Origin: a virus
Reading direction: 5' to 3' (one strand)
Length of the DNA: 64,000 nt
IMG/VR virus record: IMGVR_UViG_3300028920_000048
Below the pieces are notes generated by a model. It was not told the DNA's origin and did no database searches. It saw only the letters and a list, made by a program, of their open reading frames with translations. Both the position numbers and the translations under genes were made by a program. This document shows positions 11,177 to 56,313 of the stretch, piece by piece. The first letter of the stretch is position 1, and each line of letters starts with the position of its first letter.

Positions 11177-12416
11177 TCCTAAAGTCTCCGTTCAGAATCT
11201 CATCAACAACCGATGTCAAGCCATACTTCTCGGCAATCGACATAACCTGACTCACTATTGTACCTATTTCGTGACCGCCATTCTCACCAGAGAGCTTCGA
11301 CTGCTCCACAAAAACATTCTTAAGAAATTTCGACGCAACTTCACTGCCCGAACGCTCCAAGTGCTGTCTAATCAATTCGTCCACTTCATCCCAATCAACT
11401 GGCACAACTATCCTTACGTCACGCACTAATGGAACCACAACATCCTTATTTCCGCCTTGAAAACTAGAACTAGAACTAGAACTAGAACTAGAACTAGAAC
11501 TAGAACTAGAACTAGAACTAGATGAGCCACAAGCCTTAACCGGTGGAACTACGGCTCCCTTACCTCCAGCACTAGAACAGGGACAATTAAAAGGACTACC
11601 TGGAAGACCGGGAGAACTAGAAGGACCAGAACAATCATCAATGCCTACACATTCTTCATTTGAGCGATCTAAATAGACATAAAAACAATATGGATCAGCA
11701 TAACTATAATAAAGCCATGTATTATAAGTTCTACTAGATTCTTCACAGACTAAATTACTATAATAGGGACCACCCCAACTATCTGTATCACAATCATAAG
11801 TTGCAGCCCATTCATAAACACATCGACCTGAAGGACAAGGACAAGCACTCGGGTCTGGATCAAGTGGCACAAAACTCGGAGTAGACGAACACTGAATGGC
11901 ACTCTCACATGGTTCACCGCAGTAATAATAATAGTATTCACAAGCACTTGACGAATAAACTGGGTCTAGCCAACCTTCAGAACTAACACAAGAATCACAG
12001 CCCTGAATTAACCAACCCACAGGTATAAAAGAACTCGTTTGACAATCATAAATTGTCAGATACTGCCAAATACACCGATTTTCAGCACTCTCTGAAGAAC
12101 TAGAACTAGATGAACTACATGAACATTCCAGATTTTGAACTCTTGTGTTAAAGTCAGTAAACGGCGTCAACGTAATACAGCTTCCATCATAATCAATATC
12201 TCCGCCATCACTGTTGATCGTGCAATCGTCTCCTTCAAGTGCTCGCAAATAACCAACCCAATTCTTAAATTTGCCATAAGCATCTGCGACACACTCACCA
12301 CCTGCAATAAACGCAAGATCAGAACTAATAGAACAACAACTACAAGAAGCTCTAAATGCCTCCAAATCTGAAAAATAGCCGTTAATCTGCGCTCTGTGAG
12401 TTTTAACACATCCCAT
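11169..12416 (-). CDS. Cys-rich, poly-Ser, low-GC protein (putative fibre or receptor-binding module)
   Basis: Two related Cys/Trp/Tyr-rich repeats (RCIWQYLTIYDCQT and RCVYEWAATYDCDT), a 22-Ser tract and AT-rich codons. Confidence 0.65.
   Translation of the reverse strand: MGCVKTHRAQINGYFSDLEAFRASCSCCSISSDLAFIAGGECVADAYGKFKNWVGYLRALEGDDCTINSDGGDIDYDGSCITLTPFTDFNTRVQNLECSCSSSSSSSSESAENRCIWQYLTIYDCQTSSFIPVGWLIQGCDSCVSSEGWLDPVYSSSACEYYYYYCGEPCESAIQCSSTPSFVPLDPDPSACPCPSGRCVYEWAATYDCDTDSWGGPYYSNLVCEESSRTYNTWLYYSYADPYCFYVYLDRSNEECVGIDDCSGPSSSPGLPGSPFNCPCSSAGGKGAVVPPVKACGSSSSSSSSSSSSSSSSSSSSSFQGGNKDVVVPLVRDVRIVVPVDWDEVDELIRQHLERSGSEVASKFLKNVFVEQSKLSGENGGHEIGTIVSQVMSIAEKYGLTSVVDEILNGDFRNG
11462..11521. 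repeat. (AACTAG)x10 hexamer microsatellite encoding poly-Ser
   Basis: Ten exact tandem copies read directly. Confidence 0.95.
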
Positions 12417-45589: not shown

Positions 45590-45680
45590 TGGCGGAGACG
45601 GGAGGACTCGAACCCCAATCCCTCATCAGGATCAATCGGTTTTCAAAACCGTCCCGGCACGCCCATCCGGTTCCGTCTCC
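45590..45680 (-). tRNA. tRNA-Ser(TGA) with non-canonical 8/4 (allo-tRNA-like) fold
   Basis: GGAGACGG/CCGTCTCC 8-bp acceptor, 4-bp T stem, AA connector, long V arm, G73, CCA; loop TT-TGA-AA. Confidence 0.8.
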
Positions 45681-45681
45681 G

Positions 45682-46173
45682 TTATTTTTTCTTGGCAACA
45701 AACTCTTTCAACATGCTGATGTTTCCCTGGGCCACATGCTCAATCCAGTCCATTTCGTCAACAGTTTCCGCCAGTTCAAAAGCCTGAAAATATAGCTTAT
45801 CGGCATAAGCACGTGCTCTGTTTCGTTTCTTGCGCTTCATCTCCTTCATCTCCTTCTTCAACCGCCGCAATTCCGATCTTTGTCTTTGTAGGACACTGGC
45901 TTTGTCATTGTGTTCCTTAATTCCATTCTCAGCCTCATTCCTGGTACGGAACACCGTTACTCCAGGTTTCAAAACATCGACCAATGCTCCACTATACATA
46001 ACGCCTTCCCGCGCTCCAGGAGGCACAAGCACACAACCCATTGGTCCGTCTTCTACCACTGCCTCCCTGAAGCTACGAATGCTGTATTGATCCTTAGCCT
46101 TGGGAGCCCACCACACGGTATCACCAATGTCCACATTCAGCTTACGCAAAACATTTTTTGCCCTGCTATTCAC
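45682..46173 (-). CDS. Hypothetical protein
   Basis: Intact ORF between tRNA genes. Confidence 0.6.
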   Translation of the reverse strand: MNSRAKNVLRKLNVDIGDTVWWAPKAKDQYSIRSFREAVVEDGPMGCVLVPPGAREGVMYSGALVDVLKPGVTVFRTRNEAENGIKEHNDKASVLQRQRSELRRLKKEMKEMKRKKRNRARAYADKLYFQAFELAETVDEMDWIEHVAQGNISMLKEFVAKKK

Positions 46174-46272
46174 GATCCCAAGCCTAATTTTTCAAGCTTG
46201 GAAAACTTATCCAAGCCTAAAAGGAAGCCTTTCTCTCCCTAACGAACAACATCAAACGATACCAAGCGAAAA

Positions 46273-46364
46273 TGGCGGAAAGGGAGGGATTTGAACCCTC
46301 GTGCCCCCTTTCGAGGACGCATGAATTAGCAATCCAGCCCGATTAGCCTCTCCGGCACCTTTCC
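46273..46364 (-). tRNA. tRNA-Ser(GCT)
   Basis: Canonical type II cloverleaf; loop TT-GCT-AA; GCCA end. Confidence 0.9.
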
Positions 46365-46378
46365 GTGATTGTCGAGTA

Positions 46379-46471
46379 TGGCGGAAGCGGTGGGACTCGA
46401 ACCCACAGCCCGTGGTTGCCCACGACCCACACGCTTTCCAAGCGTGCTCCTGATCCAGCCGGTTCGCTTCC
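46379..46471 (-). tRNA. tRNA-Ser(GGA), atypical (A8-A9, 6-bp anticodon stem)
   Basis: GCACGC-TT-GGA-AA-GCGTGT; long V arm; GCCA end. Confidence 0.85.
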
Positions 46472-46478
46472 GTGAATG

Positions 46479-46571
46479 TGGCGGAGGAGGTGGGACTCGA
46501 ACCCACAGCCCGCAGTTGCCTACGACCTACCTGTTTTCGAGACAGGCTCCTCATCCAGCCGGTTCTCCTCC
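46479..46571 (-). tRNA. tRNA-Ser(CGA), atypical; near-duplicate body of tRNA-Ser(GGA)
   Basis: GCCTGT-CT-CGA-AA-ACAGGT; GCCA end. Confidence 0.85.
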
Positions 46572-46579
46572 GCTCTCAT

Positions 46580-46882
46580 CTAATCCCTCTTGGGAACAAG
46601 ATCAAACCGACGTGACTTGAACTCTTCCAGTCGGATTTCCGGGCTGCTGGCGATCTCGAAAAGAGGAAACACGACCTTCTTTGGTTTCGGAATGAACACG
46701 AAATTATACGGATAGACAACCTTGTTCAACTCACGCCACAACCGTCCACACCTACGGACCCAATAATCACGTTCAGCCCGGTCTCTTGGAAGCAACACAC
46801 GAAGCGCCATTCCCAAAACCGACACACGTCTACCAAACCAAAGGATCATGTCTTTCTCTGCTTCAATGAAGTATATGTTCAT
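46580..46882 (-). CDS. Small protein carrying a 31-aa copy of a major capsid protein segment
   Basis: KPKKVVFPLFEIASSPEIRLEEFKSRRFDLV versus MCP KPKRVQFPLFEIASNPEIQLTEIKSRRFDLV; ATGA-coupled to the upstream gene. Confidence 0.75.
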   Translation of the reverse strand: MNIYFIEAEKDMILWFGRRVSVLGMALRVLLPRDRAERDYWVRRCGRLWRELNKVVYPYNFVFIPKPKKVVFPLFEIASSPEIRLEEFKSRRFDLVPKRD

Positions 46883-47376
46883 CTCTCCAAAACGTGCCAC
46901 GTCCAGCACTGCTCTCCGACATGCTCCGAACCTTCAATCCGAAAGCCATGTCTTAGGAACAACCTGATCGAGGCTTGGTTCATCGCCCAAATCCTCGCCA
47001 CGTGTGAACCCGGATACATCGCCAGTGCGAAGCTAAGCAACAAACTCCCGAAACCTTTACCCTGCTTGCCCTTGAAGACCGTAATGCCGGTGATGTAGTT
47101 AAACTTCCTTCGACCGAAAATCGACAGAAAACGCTTCAAAATATCAGCATCGTCCGTCTCCTCCATCGCCCGAAAAGCGGGCATCTTCATCCTCAAAACC
47201 TGAACATTCCCAATCCAGCAGTCGTCAGCCCCGACAAGAAGCCAACTATGAACACCCTCGTTGTATAACCGAAGATAAGAAGCTTCCGAAAACTGAGAAT
47301 GAGGCGGGTAACACTCCTTGTCTTGCTTCGACAAACGAGCCCAGTCGGAATCATTGTCCATCAGTGCGAAACGCAT
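46879..47376 (-). CDS. GNAT-family acetyltransferase
   Basis: ITVFKGKQGKGFGSLLL (motif A) and NQASIRLFLRHGF (motif B). Confidence 0.85.
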   Translation of the reverse strand: MRFALMDNDSDWARLSKQDKECYPPHSQFSEASYLRLYNEGVHSWLLVGADDCWIGNVQVLRMKMPAFRAMEETDDADILKRFLSIFGRRKFNYITGITVFKGKQGKGFGSLLLSFALAMYPGSHVARIWAMNQASIRLFLRHGFRIEGSEHVGEQCWTWHVLER

Positions 47377-47773
47377 CACGCCACCTCTCAGGCTGCATGG
47401 CAACAAATACAGTGTAACTGTCTATGTCCAAAAGACCGCCGCCGTCTGGATGAGGATCATGCACGACCTTGCCGTCACGACCGACGCAAGCGTGCATCAA
47501 ACCCCTCGGACTTGTGCCCGAAACGATGTAATAAGGACCAAACTCGCCATAAAGGCTAATCCAAGGAAACGGCTCTTCACAGCGAAAGTCGTGCAACCCA
47601 ACGCCGCAGTACCTCAAAAGCCACTCATTGCTGTCAGCAAACCACGTGTCGCTCGGGAAATCCACACAGAAGTTCGGCAAGTTACCAAGCGGAACTTCCA
47701 AGATTGAAGCCACGCAAGCTGCAAAACAGTCGCCCTTGCCGTCGCCAAACTTGGTCTGCATTACTGGCTTCAA
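47351..47773 (-). CDS. Papain/C39-like Cys-His peptidase-fold hypothetical protein
   Basis: GDCFAACVASIL...GLMHACV...HDPHP. Confidence 0.5.
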   Translation of the reverse strand: MKPVMQTKFGDGKGDCFAACVASILEVPLGNLPNFCVDFPSDTWFADSNEWLLRYCGVGLHDFRCEEPFPWISLYGEFGPYYIVSGTSPRGLMHACVGRDGKVVHDPHPDGGGLLDIDSYTVFVAMQPERWRDAFRTDGQ

Positions 47774-48318
47774 CAGGCTCGACTCCTCTTCTCCTTGTCT
47801 GTGAAGACACCCTCGCCGTGCATTCGTGTCAAGGCGATCTCATTTACCATCTGAAGTGCTTCAGTGCAACGATCTCCAAGGAAACGTGTGCCCTGAAGGT
47901 ACTTAAACAGTTCAAACATTTTTTCCCTGTTTTTGTCAGTTGCGACATCCTTCAAGACAGCCCGACACAGCCCAACCCGAATGATCTCAAGCAGGTTCTG
48001 GTGGACCTTTCGAGCCAGTTCATCCTTCGTCAAGCCCATGCACCAAACCTCGTCCATGCGCTTGTTTACGTACCACGGGCTGGTCTCAACGTTGTCAATG
48101 TCTATGAAGTGAATCTCGTCACTAATGTTGCGACGACGATGTACGTGCACCTGAACACGCCCGATGGGCAGAAGCGGCTCAACAACGTGGTACCGGAACG
48201 GGTCGCCCTCTTCATGGCGGCTCGGATGGTGCTGAGGACGGAGCCCAGCGACTTCCAACTCGCAGATCAAAACCGGCACAAACTCCTCAACGGTAAAACT
48301 CGTTTCACTCTTCTCCAT
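47770..48318 (-). CDS. Hypothetical protein
   Basis: Start moved to ATG 48318 (GGAGG RBS) to avoid overlap with tRNA-Pro. Confidence 0.55.
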   Translation of the reverse strand: MEKSETSFTVEEFVPVLICELEVAGLRPQHHPSRHEEGDPFRYHVVEPLLPIGRVQVHVHRRRNISDEIHFIDIDNVETSPWYVNKRMDEVWCMGLTKDELARKVHQNLLEIIRVGLCRAVLKDVATDKNREKMFELFKYLQGTRFLGDRCTEALQMVNEIALTRMHGEGVFTDKEKRSRAC

Positions 48319-48348
48319 TGTGCATTCCTCCATTTTTTGGTGAAAAGA

Positions 48349-48427
48349 TGATCGGAGTGAGAGGATTTGAACCTCCGATCCCTCGGCCCCCAGCCGAGTG
48401 CCCTGAACCAGACTAGGCCACACTCCG
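48349..48427 (-). tRNA. tRNA-Pro(GGG); 3' end reads A-TCA instead of A-CCA
   Basis: CGGAGTG/CACTCCG acceptor; CTCGG-CT-GGG-GG-CCGAG. Confidence 0.85.
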
Positions 48428-48433
48428 ATCCTT

Positions 48434-49048
48434 TCACAACTCATAGCCATAGAAACGAGCCCCACGCTGAAGCTCGGTCCACAGCACAGCATCGACCGCA
48501 TCACGGACGATCTCCTTGGTCACTTCGTACTTGGGTCTCCGAGTGTTCCGATCTATCGGCACAGCCGCAAACGCCTTCTGAATCGCATCGTCGCTTGCAT
48601 TACAACCAAAGACCTCCAAGATTCGAGGCAGCACTTTACCGATATCCTCGATCCTGTAAAAGAAAGACGAGCAACCAGAAGCAATCCTGTTCCAGTAGAC
48701 CCAGTAAAGCGTTCCAGCCACAACCAGCTCATCCCGAGTCTCAAGTCTGCCCGGAAGAGGCAACTGAAACCGCTTCCTGAGCACTCTATCTATGAACGCC
48801 CAACTCTCGGGTATCGCAGTCGTCATGGACTGGATCACGACTACAGGCTCACGAACTTGATGAAGCACCACGCCGAAGCGGTCAAACGGTCTTGCAGGAG
48901 CTTCGTACCATGAAACCTTGCCGTCGCCGCCCATACGAATCTCGTGCGGCATATCCAGCCCAATATGACAAAGCACATCCGAGATATATCGTGTCCCGCT
49001 CCTGCCACAACCTGTAATGAGGACTCTTGGCATGTTCCATTCTCGCAA
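48434..49048 (-). CDS. Sulfotransferase-like protein
   Basis: LITGCGRSGTRY (5'-PSB) and HQVREPVVVIQS (3'-PB); likely start ATG 49033. Confidence 0.7.
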   Translation of the reverse strand: MREWNMPRVLITGCGRSGTRYISDVLCHIGLDMPHEIRMGGDGKVSWYEAPARPFDRFGVVLHQVREPVVVIQSMTTAIPESWAFIDRVLRKRFQLPLPGRLETRDELVVAGTLYWVYWNRIASGCSSFFYRIEDIGKVLPRILEVFGCNASDDAIQKAFAAVPIDRNTRRPKYEVTKEIVRDAVDAVLWTELQRGARFYGYEL

Positions 49049-49049
49049 C

Positions 49050-49124
49050 TGGTGGACCCGACAGGACTCGAACCTGTAACCAACGGTTTATGAGACCGCC
49101 GCTCCGCCATTGAGCTACGGGTCC
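49050..49124 (-). tRNA. tRNA with CAT anticodon (probably Ile2, possibly elongator Met)
   Basis: GCGGT-CT-CAT-AA-ACCGT; acceptor GGACCCG has C4 and C5 as in TilS substrates; ACCA end. Confidence 0.85.
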
Positions 49125-49167
49125 GAGAAAAGATCACCAATCTAAGCCCATTATACTTCCGTCTTCA

Positions 49168-49740
49168 CTACCTTACATTGAAAACGGCAACCCCGTCCTG
49201 AAAGTCCTTCAGGTTGTATTTGGGGCTGTACTTCCCACGAAGGTAGTTCAGAAGGCTCTGCACCCTTTCGTCGTCGGGTGCCTTGAAGAACTGATCTGCC
49301 GGAGAGACGGCAAGCTTGGCGCTTGTCACGAACCGAGAACCCTTGTACTTGCCCAGCTTCAGCGACAGCTTGACCTTGAATCCCTTCTCCTCAAGGTCTT
49401 TGATAAGCATGTTCGCCAGCTTCTCGCCAGCTTGTTTCTCGGTCTTCTCCTTGAACTTCTTGGCTTGCTCGCGGACTTGCTGAAACGCACTCTCGAACAA
49501 CGACGCCCCCGCCGTTCGAGGTGCTCCAATCAAAAGTTTCGATGCTTCAAGCAATCCACGAGCAATGATCAGTTTCTCCACGGTCATTCTCCTATCAACC
49601 TGTCGTGAATGCTCCACGGGGACAAGCCCTGTGGCTTCTAGGTTGTCGCTTTCGCTCCAACCAAAGACTGCATTCCCAGTCTCAATACGTTCCTTGCGGC
49701 ATTCATCCACGAAGACGAGCCCCATAGTTTTCTGCGGCAC
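49168..49740 (-). CDS. Leader-tagged protein (probable start GTG 49581)
   Basis: AGGAG + 7 nt + GTG gives MEKLIIARGLLEASKLLIGAPRTA. Confidence 0.65.
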   Translation of the reverse strand: MPQKTMGLVFVDECRKERIETGNAVFGWSESDNLEATGLVPVEHSRQVDRRMTVEKLIIARGLLEASKLLIGAPRTAGASLFESAFQQVREQAKKFKEKTEKQAGEKLANMLIKDLEEKGFKVKLSLKLGKYKGSRFVTSAKLAVSPADQFFKAPDDERVQSLLNYLRGKYSPKYNLKDFQDGVAVFNVR

Positions 49741-49772
49741 ACATCATAACAGGTCTGGATATAGGAGAAAAA

Positions 49773-49907
49773 TGGCTTGCCCTGTCTGGACTCGAACCAG
49801 AACTTCCGGCATCGTATGCGCCAGCAGAATAGCCCATGCCCTTGGGTTGTAAACCGCCACGCACCCAATGTGGCGTCCGACGTGCTACCACTTACACCAC
49901 AAAGCAA
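49773..49907 (-). ncRNA. tRNA-like RNA (135 nt) with ~58 extra nt in the anticodon arm
   Basis: Intact D arm (GTGT-AAGTGGTA-GCAC), T arm (TCTGG-TTCGAGT-CCAGA), 8-bp acceptor TTGCTTTG/CAGGGCAA, G discriminator and CCA. Confidence 0.75.
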
Positions 49908-49914
49908 ATAGTCT

Positions 49915-49991
49915 TGGCTGGCCCGGCAGGACTCGAACCTGCAACCTCCTGATCCAGAGTCAGGCGTTCCGCCAAATTGAACTACGGACCA
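49915..49991 (-). tRNA. tRNA-Gln(CTG)
   Basis: T1-A72, CCTGA-CT-CTG-GA-TCAGG, GCCA end. Confidence 0.92.
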
Positions 49992-49995
49992 GTAG

Positions 49996-50069
49996 TGGCT
50001 GGCCCGTCAGGACTTGAACCTGAAATAGAAGGTCCAAAACCTCCTGTGTTGCCATTACACTACGAGCCA
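49996..50069 (-). tRNA. tRNA-Gln(TTG)
   Basis: GGAGG-TT-TTG-GA-CCTTC, GCCA end. Confidence 0.92.
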
Positions 50070-50111
50070 GTACGCTACGGTCAGTCTATTCGGTTATCAA
50101 TGAGCGCAAAT

Positions 50112-50186
50112 TGGGGTGACCAGCGGGAATCGAACCCGCATACCTCGGGCCACAGCCGAATGCCCTACCCTTGAGCGATGATCACC
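50112..50186 (-). tRNA. tRNA-His(GTG) with encoded G-1
   Basis: TTCGG-CT-GTG-GC-CCGAG; G-1:C73; CCA. Confidence 0.92.
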
Positions 50187-50195
50187 ACTCAAATT

Positions 50196-50272
50196 TGGTC
50201 TGGCTGGGCAGATTTGAACTGCCAATCCCGGCGTCCCGAACGCCGTGCCTTACCAAGTTAGGCCACAGCCAG
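50196..50272 (-). tRNA. tRNA-Pro(CGG)
   Basis: CGGCG-TT-CGG-GA-CGCCG; C1-G72, A73, CCA. Confidence 0.92.
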
Positions 50273-50346
50273 TTACACTTCTTTCAATTTCCACCACGCT
50301 TCTGCTGCATCTGAACTCACCGAAACAACTTACGTCCGCATGTTTT

Positions 50347-50388
50347 CTATGTGGGACTGTTTGTCAAACAAAAAACAGTCCCACATAG
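50347..50388. repeat. Perfect 16-bp inverted repeat (10-nt loop) between tRNA genes
   Basis: CTATGTGGGACTGTTT / AAACAGTCCCACATAG. Confidence 0.9.
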
Positions 50389-50406
50389 CGAACATCTCTA
50401 TCAAAA

Positions 50407-50483
50407 TGGTCGGAGTGACAGGATTTGAACCTGCGACCCTCTGCTCCCAGGGCAGATGCGCTACCAGACTGCGCTACACTCCG
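50407..50483 (-). tRNA. tRNA-Pro(TGG) with C33
   Basis: TCTGC-CC-TGG-GA-GCAGA; CGGAGTG acceptor; ACCA. Confidence 0.88.
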
Positions 50484-50491
50484 AGAATTTT

Positions 50492-50568
50492 TGGCGGGAT
50501 CGACGGGACTTGAACCCGCAAACATCCGCCTCGACAGGGCGGCGCTCTGCCAATTGAACTACGATCCC
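50492..50568 (-). tRNA. tRNA-Asp(GTC)
   Basis: CCGCC-CT-GTC-GA-GGCGG; GCCA end. Confidence 0.92.
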
Positions 50569-50611
50569 ACTTCACACTCATATATCAAAAAGCGTCGATT
50601 TTTCAAAAAAC

Positions 50612-50812
50612 AAAAAAAGCCCGTAACCGGCTAGCGGCTTCGGACTCTTATGTCGCTTGGCGTCCTTCGAGTTTGCTGTCAGACACCGTGGACCGAGACC
50701 ACGCCGCAGCCGGAACTATCCGGCTGGCAATCCGACGATGGACTCGATTGTGGTGATATCCTGACAGCGTTCATTCTCGTTGACTCCTCAACCTTGGGTT
50801 TTCATCCTACAC
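50612..50812 (-). ncRNA. Unassigned ~200-nt structured RNA with its own promoter and terminator
   Basis: Long-range helix GCTGTCAG/CTGACAGC, hairpin CAGCCGGA-TAGT-TCCGGCTG, and terminal GTCCG...CGGGC plus T7 terminator (50612-50645). Confidence 0.65.
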
Positions 50813-50817
50813 ACTGT

Positions 50818-50846
50818 ATTCTACACGATCACGGAGATTCTGTCAA
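50818..50846 (-). promoter_or_regulatory. Sigma70-type promoter
   Basis: TTGACA - 17 bp - TAGAAT. Confidence 0.85.
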
Positions 50847-50895
50847 GTCTTTTTTTGAATCAAGCTTCTTTTTCTTCCTGCACTTGCCAATCGCC

Positions 50896-51060
50896 CTATT
50901 TATAAGCTGTTAGTCGCAGAAAACCACGGGGCTCGTCCCCGTGGTAATTGACGACTTCAATAGCCTTACGGTCCTCTTCCTGGTATATTTTTGCAATCGG
51001 GCTCATAATAATGCGCCTCTCGTCGAATTCTTCCAGATCAGGAACATCAGACTTTTTCAC
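50896..51060 (-). CDS. Small hypothetical protein (54 aa)
   Basis: AAGGAG RBS and GTG start directly after the upstream stop. Confidence 0.5.
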   Translation of the reverse strand: MKKSDVPDLEEFDERRIIMSPIAKIYQEEDRKAIEVVNYHGDEPRGFLRLTAYK

Positions 51061-51061
51061 G

Positions 51062-52177
51062 CTATGACTCCTTTCGTTTTCCTGACGGCAAAGCCAAGCC
51101 ACCTCTATGACCAACAACGTAATATTCTCGCATTGGATTAACCACCCAATGATCATCTTGATCTTGTTGAACCCACCCAGCCGATGGAGCCGATGGTACT
51201 TGTCCAGGACGAAGAAGACGCCAAGACCCGCCACCTGCCTTATCACTAACATAAATACTACAACCAGCAGCCCACAACTTCGAGGCCCTCACTCTAAGCA
51301 ACGGACGATCCCCTACTGGCAAATCATGACCACGCTCGTCCGCCCAAAACCTTCCTCCAGGAACCGGACCCTTTACTATTCTCTTACGTCCCTTCGGCAC
51401 ACCCGGATAACGAACAAGCCAAAAATCCCCGGCCATTCTCTCTGTTCCCAAAACCAAAAACTTAGCAACTTTAAGCAACCGTCTCGCCAGTCTGACATTG
51501 CCGTCAAACACTTGACAAGCATCAAAAGCCTGAACAAAACCATACCGAACATCCATACGTTTTTTGAGGGCAACACCTTCTGGAGTCATCATTCCCCACT
51601 GAACATTAGCCTTACCATACTCGTCATAAAGTTTCTTCATCAAGGCTTCGCCAATGCCTATACGACGATAGTTTTTGTTAACGAAGATATAGTTGACATG
51701 AATCTTGCCATCAAACTCGGAGTATTCCACGTAACCAAGCACTTTCCTGTCCGCTGCACTTGTCGCAGTCATGCAAAGATCAGTCTGCCCGTGATGCGAG
51801 CCCGTCACCTCTTCGTTGAACACCGGAATTGGTTGACTTTCAACACTAGGCATGAACTTTTTCAAGGCGTTTACAACAGTTTGATCAGCTTTCCCATGCG
51901 GACGATGCTTCCCAATCATCGGACGACCACCCTTCCACGCTGCAATACCATTTCCGCCCATCCAAAGACCGTCCAACGTTTTCCCGTCCGTATAGAGCTT
52001 CTTACTCTCGGCTCGCTTGCCGCCCAAAAACGCCTCAAGCACCTTCTTATCGCCCTTTGTCAACCGCACAAAAGCTTTCCTATCCTCTAAAAACCTCAGA
52101 ACAAACTTCAATTGCCTCAGCAACGCCATCCAAAGGCTCATCATGTTCAAGAGCCAACCGACGCAAAATCCAATCAC
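51062..52177 (-). CDS. Multidomain protein with a GNAT acetyltransferase domain and an internal leader motif (start probably GTG 52069)
   Basis: VNYIFVNKNYRRIGIGEALM (GNAT motif A); NVRLARRLLKVAKFLVLGT between domains. Confidence 0.75.
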   Translation of the reverse strand: MIGFCVGWLLNMMSLWMALLRQLKFVLRFLEDRKAFVRLTKGDKKVLEAFLGGKRAESKKLYTDGKTLDGLWMGGNGIAAWKGGRPMIGKHRPHGKADQTVVNALKKFMPSVESQPIPVFNEEVTGSHHGQTDLCMTATSAADRKVLGYVEYSEFDGKIHVNYIFVNKNYRRIGIGEALMKKLYDEYGKANVQWGMMTPEGVALKKRMDVRYGFVQAFDACQVFDGNVRLARRLLKVAKFLVLGTERMAGDFWLVRYPGVPKGRKRIVKGPVPGGRFWADERGHDLPVGDRPLLRVRASKLWAAGCSIYVSDKAGGGSWRLLRPGQVPSAPSAGWVQQDQDDHWVVNPMREYYVVGHRGGLALPSGKRKES

Positions 52178-53208: not shown

Positions 53209-55236
53209 TCACGGCTTCTGATACACCAGTATAGGTTCAAGGCGCACAGCCCCATCGAACACCGACTTGTACCTCATAGAGTGCGTGTCAACGTACCTGG
53301 CAACTTGACGCAATACTACCTGAGCATCATCAAGAAGCAAATACTTTCTGTCACCAATAGTCACATCAGCAATGTTCAGCACCAAATAACCACCAGATAC
53401 CAACAATCCAGCAGACTTAGTTATCAAACGCTCAAGAAACTTAACACGCCACTCATCATAAGTCGAATAACGGTTATGGCTTATACAATCATCGTCGCCA
53501 TACCACTCCTTCGTATAGTAAGGCGGAGACGTGAAAACCACATCATATTGTTCATCTCCAATATCCACATCCTCAAAAGCCCCGTACCTTATGTCCACCG
53601 TCTTTCCTGGAATATCCCTACTCAAAATGCACCGCATGTGCTTCAAGCCCTTCACCGTTTCCCCACAAGCATCTACACCTGTATAACTGCCAGCCTGCGA
53701 CACATAGAAGCCAAGCAACCGCCCCCCAAAACCAGCACACGGGTCTAACACGCTACCACCACTCGGACAGTACCTATCCCAAATCGCCTTAGCAATCGCA
53801 GGACGAAAATTGTACACACCACCAAATGACGAACGCATCTCATTTCGCAAAGCTGATGACGACACAGAGTCACGATACTTCAATGTCCTAACAACTGCCT
53901 TCTCAAGTAGCCCAACATTACCAAACACATTCAATGGACTCTTCCCGCCATTTCGATGAGCCCTCCATAACGACGGAAAAAAACACGCACAAACACTAGA
54001 ACCCGCATTGTAACCAGAATCTATTGGCTCATCCAAAATCACATCAGTCCCCCGAAGTCTCGCAACTTCAACTGCCCTGTCCTTTTTCTTCATCTTTGGG
54101 TAAGGAAATCCACGAATCTGCCACATTTTTGTTATCTTAGCAACCAAACACGAATCATCAGCATCAGATGCACCATAACGCCCAATCGAGCGATACACCG
54201 GTACAAGATCAACACAGGCGTTAAACGGAAGGCAAAAACGCAAACTAACGGGAACCTTGTACTGCATGGACTCATGTAGGTGCTCACCTATAACATCAAA
54301 AACTTTTTGCTTGTTATCCAACCACAAAATAACACCACCATCCGAACGCCACTGCACTCTCGTATCAAACGTAAACCGCCGGTTCAGACCATCAGCAATC
54401 AACTCAGCATCATCACGAAACGCATTGATACACAGTGTGAACCGCCCATCAAGACTGCAATCACTCAAATGTCCATCATCCATATACCAAACAGCCAACG
54501 AAAGAGGCGTTACATTGTCAATCATCCCTTCAGGAAATCTTTTCTTTCCACCCTCGGAATAAAACATCTCATAATATGGGACAAACACAGAATGAAAACA
54601 TGTCACAAAACACCTACCATGACAAACTCTATCATCACCAAGCACTTTTTCTGTTGCCCTCACGCGCTTAGAAAACGGTCTCAATATATCGCGTTTCCAT
54701 CTGAGATACAACTCCTGATTACAACTATGACCCTCTTTGAACCTCGCAACATCACCTGCCTTGCTGATATGCACATTCGCATCGCCAAGCAATGACCCAA
54801 CGACAATCTCGTGTTGACCCTGCGTCAGCGAGTTTGGCAAATCCGCTCGAATATGCTGCCCCTTCGACATTGCAACAATACCAAACTCCTTGAGCCGCGT
54901 CCGCACCAACATTCGACTACACCCAAACCGTTTTGCTAATCGACGCTCTCCCAAACCTTGATACAACTTCTCTAATTCACCCTTCGACACAGCATTGATG
55001 TCCTGACGTCCAGATCGTCTTGCCTTAGCAGCTATCCGATCACGAGCCTTTATCGTTACAATCCCATACTTCCTCCTGTAATAGCCAACAGCAACATCAG
55101 TCAACCCAAATCGCCCAGCAATCTCAGCATCGGATAACAACAACTCCTCGTACAGCTTTCTCAACACATCCTCCGCCAATCCGTGGTCCTTGTGTGTCCT
55201 CTTATCAGACATGGCATCTCCAATCAACTTAATCAT
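53209..55236 (-). CDS. Fusion of HTH repeats, LAGLIDADG endonuclease and amino-(N4/N6) DNA methyltransferase
   Basis: IVVGSLLGDANV and LAVWYMDDG (LAGLIDADG_2); VLDPCAGFGGRL (motif I) and VFTSPPY (motif IV). Confidence 0.8.
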   Translation of the reverse strand: MIKLIGDAMSDKRTHKDHGLAEDVLRKLYEELLLSDAEIAGRFGLTDVAVGYYRRKYGIVTIKARDRIAAKARRSGRQDINAVSKGELEKLYQGLGERRLAKRFGCSRMLVRTRLKEFGIVAMSKGQHIRADLPNSLTQGQHEIVVGSLLGDANVHISKAGDVARFKEGHSCNQELYLRWKRDILRPFSKRVRATEKVLGDDRVCHGRCFVTCFHSVFVPYYEMFYSEGGKKRFPEGMIDNVTPLSLAVWYMDDGHLSDCSLDGRFTLCINAFRDDAELIADGLNRRFTFDTRVQWRSDGGVILWLDNKQKVFDVIGEHLHESMQYKVPVSLRFCLPFNACVDLVPVYRSIGRYGASDADDSCLVAKITKMWQIRGFPYPKMKKKDRAVEVARLRGTDVILDEPIDSGYNAGSSVCACFFPSLWRAHRNGGKSPLNVFGNVGLLEKAVVRTLKYRDSVSSSALRNEMRSSFGGVYNFRPAIAKAIWDRYCPSGGSVLDPCAGFGGRLLGFYVSQAGSYTGVDACGETVKGLKHMRCILSRDIPGKTVDIRYGAFEDVDIGDEQYDVVFTSPPYYTKEWYGDDDCISHNRYSTYDEWRVKFLERLITKSAGLLVSGGYLVLNIADVTIGDRKYLLLDDAQVVLRQVARYVDTHSMRYKSVFDGAVRLEPILVYQKP

Positions 55237-55443: not shown

Positions 55444-56313
55444 TTACGTGCGGGTAATCTGGAGAACCTGAAGAGCGTAAGGGTTATAAGCCCCGATGCC
55501 CAAGTTCTCAAACATACTAAAGCCGATGAGCCTGTTCTTCGGATCATCTGCCGACAAAACCGTAAGTTCTGTGCGCACTGGAACGCGCCCGAAGAACTCG
55601 GGTTCACCGCAAACATACACGGTCCCCTCAGGAACAATACGACTGACGATCAACTTGGCACCCCACAGAATCGCCATCAAACCAGTGTTCAACAAGCGAG
55701 CCTGCGTCTCGATGTCAAGGGTATCGCGGTCCCACTTACGCAAGTCCGCATAATCCTTGGCATTAAGGAACACGTTGGCGACCCTCATGTCCGTCCTCTC
55801 GACGTTCGCAAAAGCGTCTGCCAGAGAATTGGCCGTGAGGTTTCCGGTCACCGGAATGATCGGATTCGGGTTCGTCGGATCAGCAGCCAGAGCATCCATA
55901 ACGGCGAAGACCTTGCGATCCTCTTCCGCCTGAATCTCGGACTTGCCGAGGTCGACCGAGCGCTCAACGAGATCGAACCGGCGAGATTTGATCTCAGTAA
56001 GCTGGATTTCCGGGTTACTGGCGATCTCAAAGAGAGGGAACTGCACCCGCTTGGGCTTCGCAACGGCGACGATGTTCTCGCCTTCCTCGCCGATCACGTA
56101 CGCCGTAATGTTGGGGTCTTTGTCGTAAATAGGCAGAGCGCCATCGGGCAGTTGCTCGACGTAAAACGCCTTACGACCCACGGACGAATAATCACGACGC
56201 CGCCTCAAAGGCTGGATCATACTCGCCGCAAGCCGCTGCCGACCGGCAGCCGTGCGGATGTACCGTGAAATAACACGGTTTTTCGTCTTATTGGAGACTC
56301 GTCTCCTTGCCAT
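55444..56313 (-). CDS. Major capsid protein (HK97 fold)
   Basis: Follows protease, scaffold and decoration genes and is followed by a strong terminator. Motifs (QRLAASMIQP, FEIASNPEI, PEGTVYVCGEPEFFG) resemble, from memory, Bxz1-like mycobacteriophage capsids. Confidence 0.9.
   Translation of the reverse strand: MARRRVSNKTKNRVISRYIRTAAGRQRLAASMIQPLRRRRDYSSVGRKAFYVEQLPDGALPIYDKDPNITAYVIGEEGENIVAVAKPKRVQFPLFEIASNPEIQLTEIKSRRFDLVERSVDLGKSEIQAEEDRKVFAVMDALAADPTNPNPIIPVTGNLTANSLADAFANVERTDMRVANVFLNAKDYADLRKWDRDTLDIETQARLLNTGLMAILWGAKLIVSRIVPEGTVYVCGEPEFFGRVPVRTELTVLSADDPKNRLIGFSMFENLGIGAYNPYALQVLQITRT

Follow-up and report, generated by a model that had tools for sequence, protein, structure and literature searches.

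The tRNA genes of phages are currently explained by codon-usage matching or by the replacement of degraded or cleaved host tRNAs, and the arrays are treated as constitutive cargo. Transcription attenuators respond to the level of charged tRNA and not to the amino acid alone, as in the his system. In E. coli, the pheST attenuator with its pheM leader controls a gene of the translation apparatus and responds to one charged tRNA. In the literature we found no account of leader-peptide attenuators located before tRNA genes. The attenuators of the amino-acid operons (ilvGMEDA for Ile/Leu/Val, thr for Thr/Ile, and trpL, hisL, leuL and pheL; compare PMC1183508) have the same plan of promoter, ORF and terminator as the locus reported here; they likewise form the mutually exclusive pairings 1:2, 2:3 and 3:4 that are predicted for it, with the position of the ribosome deciding between them. 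The multivalent ones among them (ilvGMEDA and thr) sense more than one amino acid, as the present element is predicted to do.

The locus was found in a 64,000-nucleotide stretch of viral DNA (IMG/VR record IMGVR_UViG_3300028920_000048), which we call the window; all genes in it are on the minus strand, and GC skew is negative across the 64 kb. We consider that the element is probably a ribosome-mediated (leader-peptide) transcription attenuator, which would gate the phage tRNA operon. The window contained a promoter, an ORF with a ribosome-binding site, a run of cognate codons, and a terminator before the genes that would be regulated (Table 1).

Table 1. Coordinates of the leader element, the predicted competing structures and the tRNA array in the window, and of the leader cassettes in phage Bajun.
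Feature	Position	Strand	Remarks
A-run	50856-50850	-	just upstream of promoter
Sigma70-type promoter, TTGACA-17-TAGAAT	50818..50846	-	11/12 consensus match
Promoter hexamers	TTGACA 50846-50841; TAGAAT 50823-50818	-	spacer 17
Ribosome-binding site, GAGGAG	50784..50789	-	9 nt 5′ of AUG
Leader ORF	50679..50774	-	31 codons + stop; peptide MNAVRISPQSSPSSDCQPDSSGCGVVSVHGV
Regulatory run, codons 7-21	50712..50756	-	SPQSSPSSDCQPDSS; 14/15 codons read by downstream tRNAs
Hairpin 1:2	50675..50768	-	34 pairs, -48.0 kcal/mol; 5′ strand, regulatory codons; 3′ strand, region 2
Perfect long-range helix, 8 bp	50675-50682 with 50761-50768		within hairpin 1:2
Apical helix, 8 bp	50707-50714 with 50719-50726		within hairpin 1:2
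Region 2	50676..50713	-	hairpin 3′ strand and candidate antiterminator 5′ half; pairs with 50671-50627
Region 3	50627..50671	-	linker and terminator 5′ strand, loop, first 3′-strand bases
Intrinsic terminator, including U-tract	50606..50648	-	stem 50648-50616, 13 pairs, -16.8 kcal/mol
tRNA array, presumed controlled unit	45590..50568	-	12 tRNA genes with small protein genes between; order: Asp, Pro(UGG), Pro(CGG), His, Gln(UUG), Gln(CUG), odd tRNA-like RNA, Met, Pro(GGG), Ser(CGA), Ser(GGA), Ser(GCU), Ser(UGA)
Next strong terminator downstream of array	45478-45455		
Bajun leader cassettes	L089:14590-14860 and L089:11627-12008		homologues in L090-L095

The promoter is the sole match of at least 11/12 on both strands of the 64-kb window, and base shuffles of the minus strand gave about 0.4 matches at this level by chance. 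Transcription would start at about 50812-50810. The leader 5′ of the AUG is 38 nt, including the ribosome-binding site; the neighbouring 54-codon gene (51060-50896) has the start signal AAGGAG, followed by 7 nt and then GTG. The terminator ends 36 nt 5′ of tRNA-Asp, and there is no other promoter-like site in this gap. The whole 5-kb array is presumably one transcription unit. The commonest leader codons correspond to four tRNA-Ser genes; these are located 4-5 kb downstream, behind protein genes, and would have to lie on the same transcript as the leader.

Other repeats were also observed around the element. An inverted repeat at 50340-50395 (23-nt arms, 91% complementary, 10 nt apart) sits in the 134-nt gap between tRNA-Pro(UGG) and tRNA-Pro(CGG) and has no U-run on the minus strand. 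A hairpin at 50912-50956, CCACGGGG...CCCCGTGG and then TTTTCTG, is located within the 3′ end of the 54-codon gene and might serve the upstream late operon as a partial terminator; sequences of 24-30 nt similar to this hairpin were found at 49614-49637 and 49707-49736.

The 208-nt minus-strand transcript was predicted to fold at -82.6 kcal/mol (z -4.2), and none of 200 shuffles was equally stable. The overall fold comprises a long irregular hairpin (50768-50675), a small hairpin and the terminator, and in a 213-nt fold the GAGGAG was exposed in the loop of the small hairpin. Hairpin 1:2 has an apical loop of 4 nt, and none of its internal loops is larger than a one-sided bulge of 6 nt. The terminator stem contains a 1x1 internal loop and a 5-nt loop, and is followed by UUUUUUUGUUUUUU (U7-G-U6). 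Most of the structural claims of the original prediction, which was made from the sequence alone, were recovered here. It had named a TTGACA-17-TAGAAT promoter, which scored 11/12 and was unique at that score in 64 kb; an 8-bp perfect long-range helix, found at the position given in Table 1; an intrinsic terminator, whose -16.8 kcal/mol stem and U7-G-U6 tract bear it out; and a 31-codon ORF with a ribosome-binding site inside the paired region, which is present with GAGGAG 9 nt before the AUG. The extension of the helix by G-U pairs, also claimed there, fits the minus strand, because the opposite strand folded at just -68 kcal/mol (z -2.5). The two or three branch hairpins were not reproduced, and one long irregular hairpin was found instead.

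Twelve array tRNAs were counted (Asp, three Pro, His, two Gln, Met and four Ser), and they read 17 of the 31 codons of the leader ORF; for 11 of the 12 anticodons a cognate codon is present in it. The six array amino acids make up 0.25 of the phage's own proteins in the window, which gives a binomial P of 3.7e-4 for 17/31, and dinucleotide shuffles of the ORF gave P = 0.006 for the count and 0.003 for count and coverage together; these values are only descriptive, because the match was noticed after the sequence was read and no test was pre-registered. Codons 7-21 sample nine different array tRNA species. A 14/15 run was reached in none of 50,000 dinucleotide shuffles, and elsewhere on the minus strand only a poly-Ser tract near 11528 has such a stretch. 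No other stop-free stretch of 31 codons on this strand of the window has at least 17 cognate codons together with at least 11 tRNAs covered; the remaining minus-strand stretches rich in array amino acids are low-complexity repeats. Enrichment for array amino acids was absent from the other two frames of the leader DNA.

The second half of the peptide (GCGVVSVHGV; Gly, Cys, Val) arises simply from translation of the complement of the first half, and neither the leader peptide nor a plus-strand ORF across the region matched a Pfam or PHROG family. The ORF had been regarded at first as a possible confounder; its presence was confirmed, and since its codons match the downstream tRNAs, its role is now likely that of a sensor. 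Among the other products of the window are a poly-Ser tract, collagen-like repeats rich in Pro and Gln, and a protein rich in Asp and Met, which would be a plausible source of the tRNA demand.

Region 3 could pair alternatively with region 2 or within the terminator. The candidate antiterminator 2:3 (segment 50717-50627) was predicted at -41.0 kcal/mol with a z of -3.5; a helix of 11 bp, interrupted by one bulged U, forms its core. For the duplex of region 2 and the terminator 5′ half, the calculation gave -30.6, against -18.1 ± 3.2 for shuffles (z -3.9), a value that 2 of 1000 shuffles reached; the lower part of the 2:3 helix taken alone was no better than chance. When a ribosome was masked and the transcript was cut before the terminator 3′ strand, stalls at codons 7-8 and 14-17 gave the antiterminator as the best fold. 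With the masked ribosome and the complete terminator, equilibrium folding gave no switch to the antiterminator, and the terminator was favoured at almost every stall (P 0.55-0.95). The switch would therefore have to be kinetic, as the switch of the trp leader is.

The proposed mechanism is as follows. Host RNA polymerase would start at the strong promoter, and the nascent RNA would bear the 31-codon ORF, in which codons 7-21 demand Ser, Pro, Gln and Asp, that is, amino acids of the downstream tRNAs. When the ORF is untranslated or quickly translated, hairpin 1:2 would form, or re-form behind the ribosome; the terminator 3:4 could then fold, so that transcription would stop 36 nt before tRNA-Asp and an RNA of about 200 nt would be released. 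When charged Ser, Pro, Gln and Asp tRNAs are scarce, the ribosome would linger on the run and cover region 1, region 2 would capture the terminator 5′ half (2:3), and the polymerase would enter the tRNA array. The outcome would be a negative feedback fitting tRNA supply to demand. Since attenuators sense charged tRNA, the circuit would be a feedback on tRNA supply itself. For this scheme the ORF would be translated, the timing of ribosome and polymerase would matter, and read-through would presumably vary with tRNA supply. Transcription and translation would also have to be coupled in the host.

One natural variant of the element was available. It is the only homologue of the window leader that we found, and it came from a 2023 metagenome of another study as one 354-nt contig (X3; depth 2.7) across 50461-50810. 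Over the contig it differs from the window by 19 substitutions and two indels, and 11 of the substitutions are inside the element. Conservation of the ORF and stems can thus be judged in one variant only: the ORF is intact, and 0/68 bases of the 1:2 stems are changed, against 11/137 elsewhere in the element (Fisher p = 0.010). The only coding changes are Cys16 to His and an in-frame 3-nt deletion of Pro8. Histidine at codon 16 belongs to the array amino acids, so that the run now consists of 14 cognate residues with no interruption. In the terminator, two stem changes keep pairing (U-G to C-G and G-C to G-U), and the other three changes are in the loop or the internal loop. Two loop changes strike the 2:3 helix, where one pair is broken and one G-C becomes G-U, and the X3 antiterminator (-30.1 kcal/mol, z -0.4) is no better than shuffles. 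A 2:3 pairing that would exclude the terminator and be sequestered by 1:2 has z values of -3.5 and -3.9 and the expected geometry in the window and is at chance level in X3, so its significance belongs to the reference sequence alone; X3, being one low-depth contig, cannot decide whether the antiterminator is conserved.

We searched for further relatives in several ways. Exact 25-mers and 20-mers of the leader and a degenerate pattern for the peptide run had no match in IMG/VR, a leader 28-mer had none in the GTDB genomes, and in phage GenBank records the matches were only to tRNAs or distant pieces. The relatives of the GNAT gene (51062-52177) were only distant and N-terminal, and their loci had neither tRNAs nor the RNA. 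The 190-residue gene, used as a search handle, and a spurious 87-residue plus-strand ORF had no relatives, and the 54-residue upstream gene matched nothing but the contig of this phage itself, in two assemblies. For the capsid protein (55444-56313), IMG/VR contains 149 relatives, up to 90% identical, some of them on contigs of 250-470 kb. The element was absent from the best 80 of these 149 capsid-relative loci and from six loci of the GNAT search (86 in total), and it appears to be lineage-specific, because 80 related phage loci lack it. Beyond the capsid gene there is no synteny, and the genes that follow differ almost completely between phages. In the window, one 675-residue ORF (53209-55236) immediately after the capsid gene contains both LAGLIDADG endonuclease and DNA methyltransferase domains.

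Three capsid relatives contain tRNA arrays. In one of them (L007, 12290-12349), the promoter TTGAAA-17-TATAAT (11/12) is located directly 5′ of tRNA-Met with no leader. Sigma70-like promoters that abut tRNAs in this relative support the view that the window promoter is a tRNA promoter and that the leader of about 200 nt is an added control module. In another (L043, 15880-15948), a terminator hairpin with a 13-bp stem lies 8 nt before tRNA-Lys, and a 21-codon ORF, which is not enriched for array amino acids, ends in the terminator loop. In the annotation of Pseudomonas phage Psa21 and Sinorhizobium phage Phosso, tRNA genes are single or paired and scattered among protein genes, with no dense blocks.

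Since promoter and terminator bracket a discrete and very stable RNA, whose stem bases are kept in the X3 variant, the element might be a stand-alone small RNA, about 200 nt long and acting in trans, with the ORF incidental and the array read from elsewhere or by leaky read-through. This is unlikely, since it leaves unexplained the ribosome-binding site, the open frame through the hairpin, the 14/15 codon match and the complementarity of region 2 to the terminator; no Rfam family, candidate target or homologues were found for such an RNA. Terminated attenuator RNAs can act in trans, as is described for rnTrpL of Sinorhizobium (PMC6614838), and a function of this kind may coexist with attenuation. 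The terminated leader transcript of the window could likewise persist as a small RNA; unlike for rnTrpL, evidence of a trans target was not found in the window. The term "stand-alone" in the original prediction is probably wrong in function, because the ORF codons match the tRNAs and region 2 competes with the terminator; termination would nevertheless yield a transcript of about 200 nt. The idea favoured there, a 6S-like decoy for the host RNA polymerase, is hardly credible. What the element shares with 6S RNA (RF00013 and relatives) is only the size of about 200 nt and the high stability; a role in host takeover would be plausible, and none of the tools gave a result in favour of the decoy. 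Rfam's 6S models had no match at E values up to 10 on 501 nt (50500-51000), and the rod-with-bubble layout was not recovered, since the apical loop has 4 nt, an open-promoter-like central bubble is missing, and the 5′ and 3′ ends do not pair with each other to form a closing stem. The statement that no known family fits agrees with Rfam, where only tRNAs matched, at gathering scores as well as at E up to 10. In the search for a riboswitch or T-box there was likewise no match besides tRNAs, and the best of the non-tRNA matches lay on the opposite strand and scored 19 bits (E 0.47), where the cut-off is 60. The second reading offered at first, an attenuating leader for the tRNA operon, finds support here and can now be made specific, in that the codons match the tRNAs and the 3′ strand of the hairpin competes with the terminator.

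If the locus were an ordinary small-protein gene, the 31-residue Ser/Pro-rich peptide itself would be the product, and the ribosome-binding site, the AUG and a frame that stays intact in two variants despite an in-frame deletion would agree with this. We regard it as very unlikely: an ORF wholly contained in a -48 kcal/mol hairpin, as this one is, would be unusual among expressed genes, its second half is merely the complement of the first, the peptide has no Pfam or PHROG match, both amino-acid differences in X3 are non-conservative, and the tRNA match and the 2:3 pairing would stay unexplained. The region could also be a chance or decaying spacer, in which a tRNA promoter is followed by an unrelated hairpin and terminator (for example, an insertion remnant) with no regulatory logic. 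The high variability of the region downstream of the capsid gene, the lack of the element in 80 related loci and the chance-level antiterminator of X3 speak for such a spacer. It appears quite improbable, since it would take a coincidence of the codon run (0/50,000), the fold (z -4.2) and the 2:3 pairing (z -3.5 to -3.9), and since 0/68 stem bases changed while the flanks differ by about 8%. The leader-peptide attenuator is the reading that we prefer.

A similar design was observed in cultured phages of Caulobacter and Brevundimonas, of which we compared seven (Bajun, Gurke, Kabachok, CcrColossus, CcrSC, CcrRogue and Magneto). Brevundimonas phage Bajun (ON529858.1) shares only tRNA similarity with the window and contains two leader cassettes. 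The first has a 31-codon ORF, MTSYRQNVQNIRVVR... (MTSYRQNVQNIRVVRFNR...), inside a hairpin with the terminator next to it, and heads the tRNA block Tyr-Val-Ile-Val-Gln-Asn-Arg-Arg, which 19 of the 31 residues match (P = 3.7e-5). In the second, BAJUN_02440, annotated as a hypothetical protein of 42 residues, precedes Pro x3-Thr, Leu x3-His and Ser x2; 28 of its 42 residues match its tRNAs (P = 1.3e-7), and it looks like a leader peptide. The existing annotation of these cassettes is "terminator" or "hypothetical protein" at most.

The first Bajun leader was found with 70-77% identity in 36 records of Caulobacter and Brevundimonas phages, and the leader ORF, of 30-32 codons, is intact in all seven phages compared; in the CcrRogue record the leader is at 51649-51744. 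Blocks that include tRNA-Asn but lack tRNA-Phe go with a run of ...QN/NN..., and blocks with tRNA-Phe go with ...QF...; the run carries both Asn and Phe where both tRNAs are in the block. In the seven-phage alignment, 77 of 77 cells of 2:3 are paired and three pairs are changed on both sides, and eight pairs of 1:2 and 3:4 are changed on both sides; for 2:3 as well as for 1:2 with 3:4, shuffles never reached the observed paired share or covariation score. These counts come from related sequences, and they may be taken as indicative, not as proof, of the pattern expected of a real attenuator.

In some of these phages, CcrRogue among them, a tRNA-like sequence was seen by eye after the terminator (L090 at about 1740-1825, with equivalents in L092-L095). 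It has a GTA (Tyr) anticodon loop and a long extra arm, and it was called by neither ARAGORN nor Rfam, except for a weak tRNA match at L094:1806-1877. The phiCbK genome paper states that a Tyr tRNA is absent from these phages, and attenuators or leaders go unmentioned in it (PMC3556154).

On balance, we lean slightly towards the view that large phages regulate their tRNA arrays by demand, with multivalent leader peptides sampling the encoded tRNA species, and that these leaders form a widespread, unpublished class which includes those of the Caulobacter phages. If this is true, a phage would make tRNAs only when the host pool falls short, for example upon loss of host tRNAs or during the decoding of its own serine-, proline- and glutamine-rich fibre genes, and the array would be a self-adjusting supply circuit. 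The class can be tested at the bench, as the same layout is present in cultured Caulobacter and Brevundimonas phages, which infect a model bacterium. For annotation, short ORFs and terminators before phage tRNA blocks, such as BAJUN_02440, should be neither dismissed nor given the label "hypothetical protein".

Compared with the attenuators of the amino-acid operons, the element of the window has no sequence similarity and no match to an Rfam leader family. It lies in a phage and would control tRNA genes instead of biosynthetic enzymes; between four and six amino acids and between nine and eleven tRNA species are represented in its run, and its ORF, long at 31 codons, spans both strands of 1:2. 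Like pheST with pheM, it would be a case of leader-peptide attenuation of a translation-apparatus gene, whereas there a synthetase is controlled and a single amino acid is sensed. The cassettes of the Caulobacter and Brevundimonas phages have no sequence similarity to it and sense different amino acids (Tyr, Arg, Gln, Asn/Phe, Val and Ile), and in the Caulobacter phages the AUG is about 10 nt after the -10 element (near-leaderless), in contrast to the 38-nt leader with ribosome-binding site in the window. The plan, however, is the same: a promoter, an ORF of 30-32 codons in a hairpin with an early run spelling the next tRNA block, a spacing of about 31-33 nt between stop codon and terminator, and a first tRNA gene that follows closely on the terminator. 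If our reading is correct, classical attenuation, described for amino-acid and synthetase genes, would be extended to the tRNA genes themselves.
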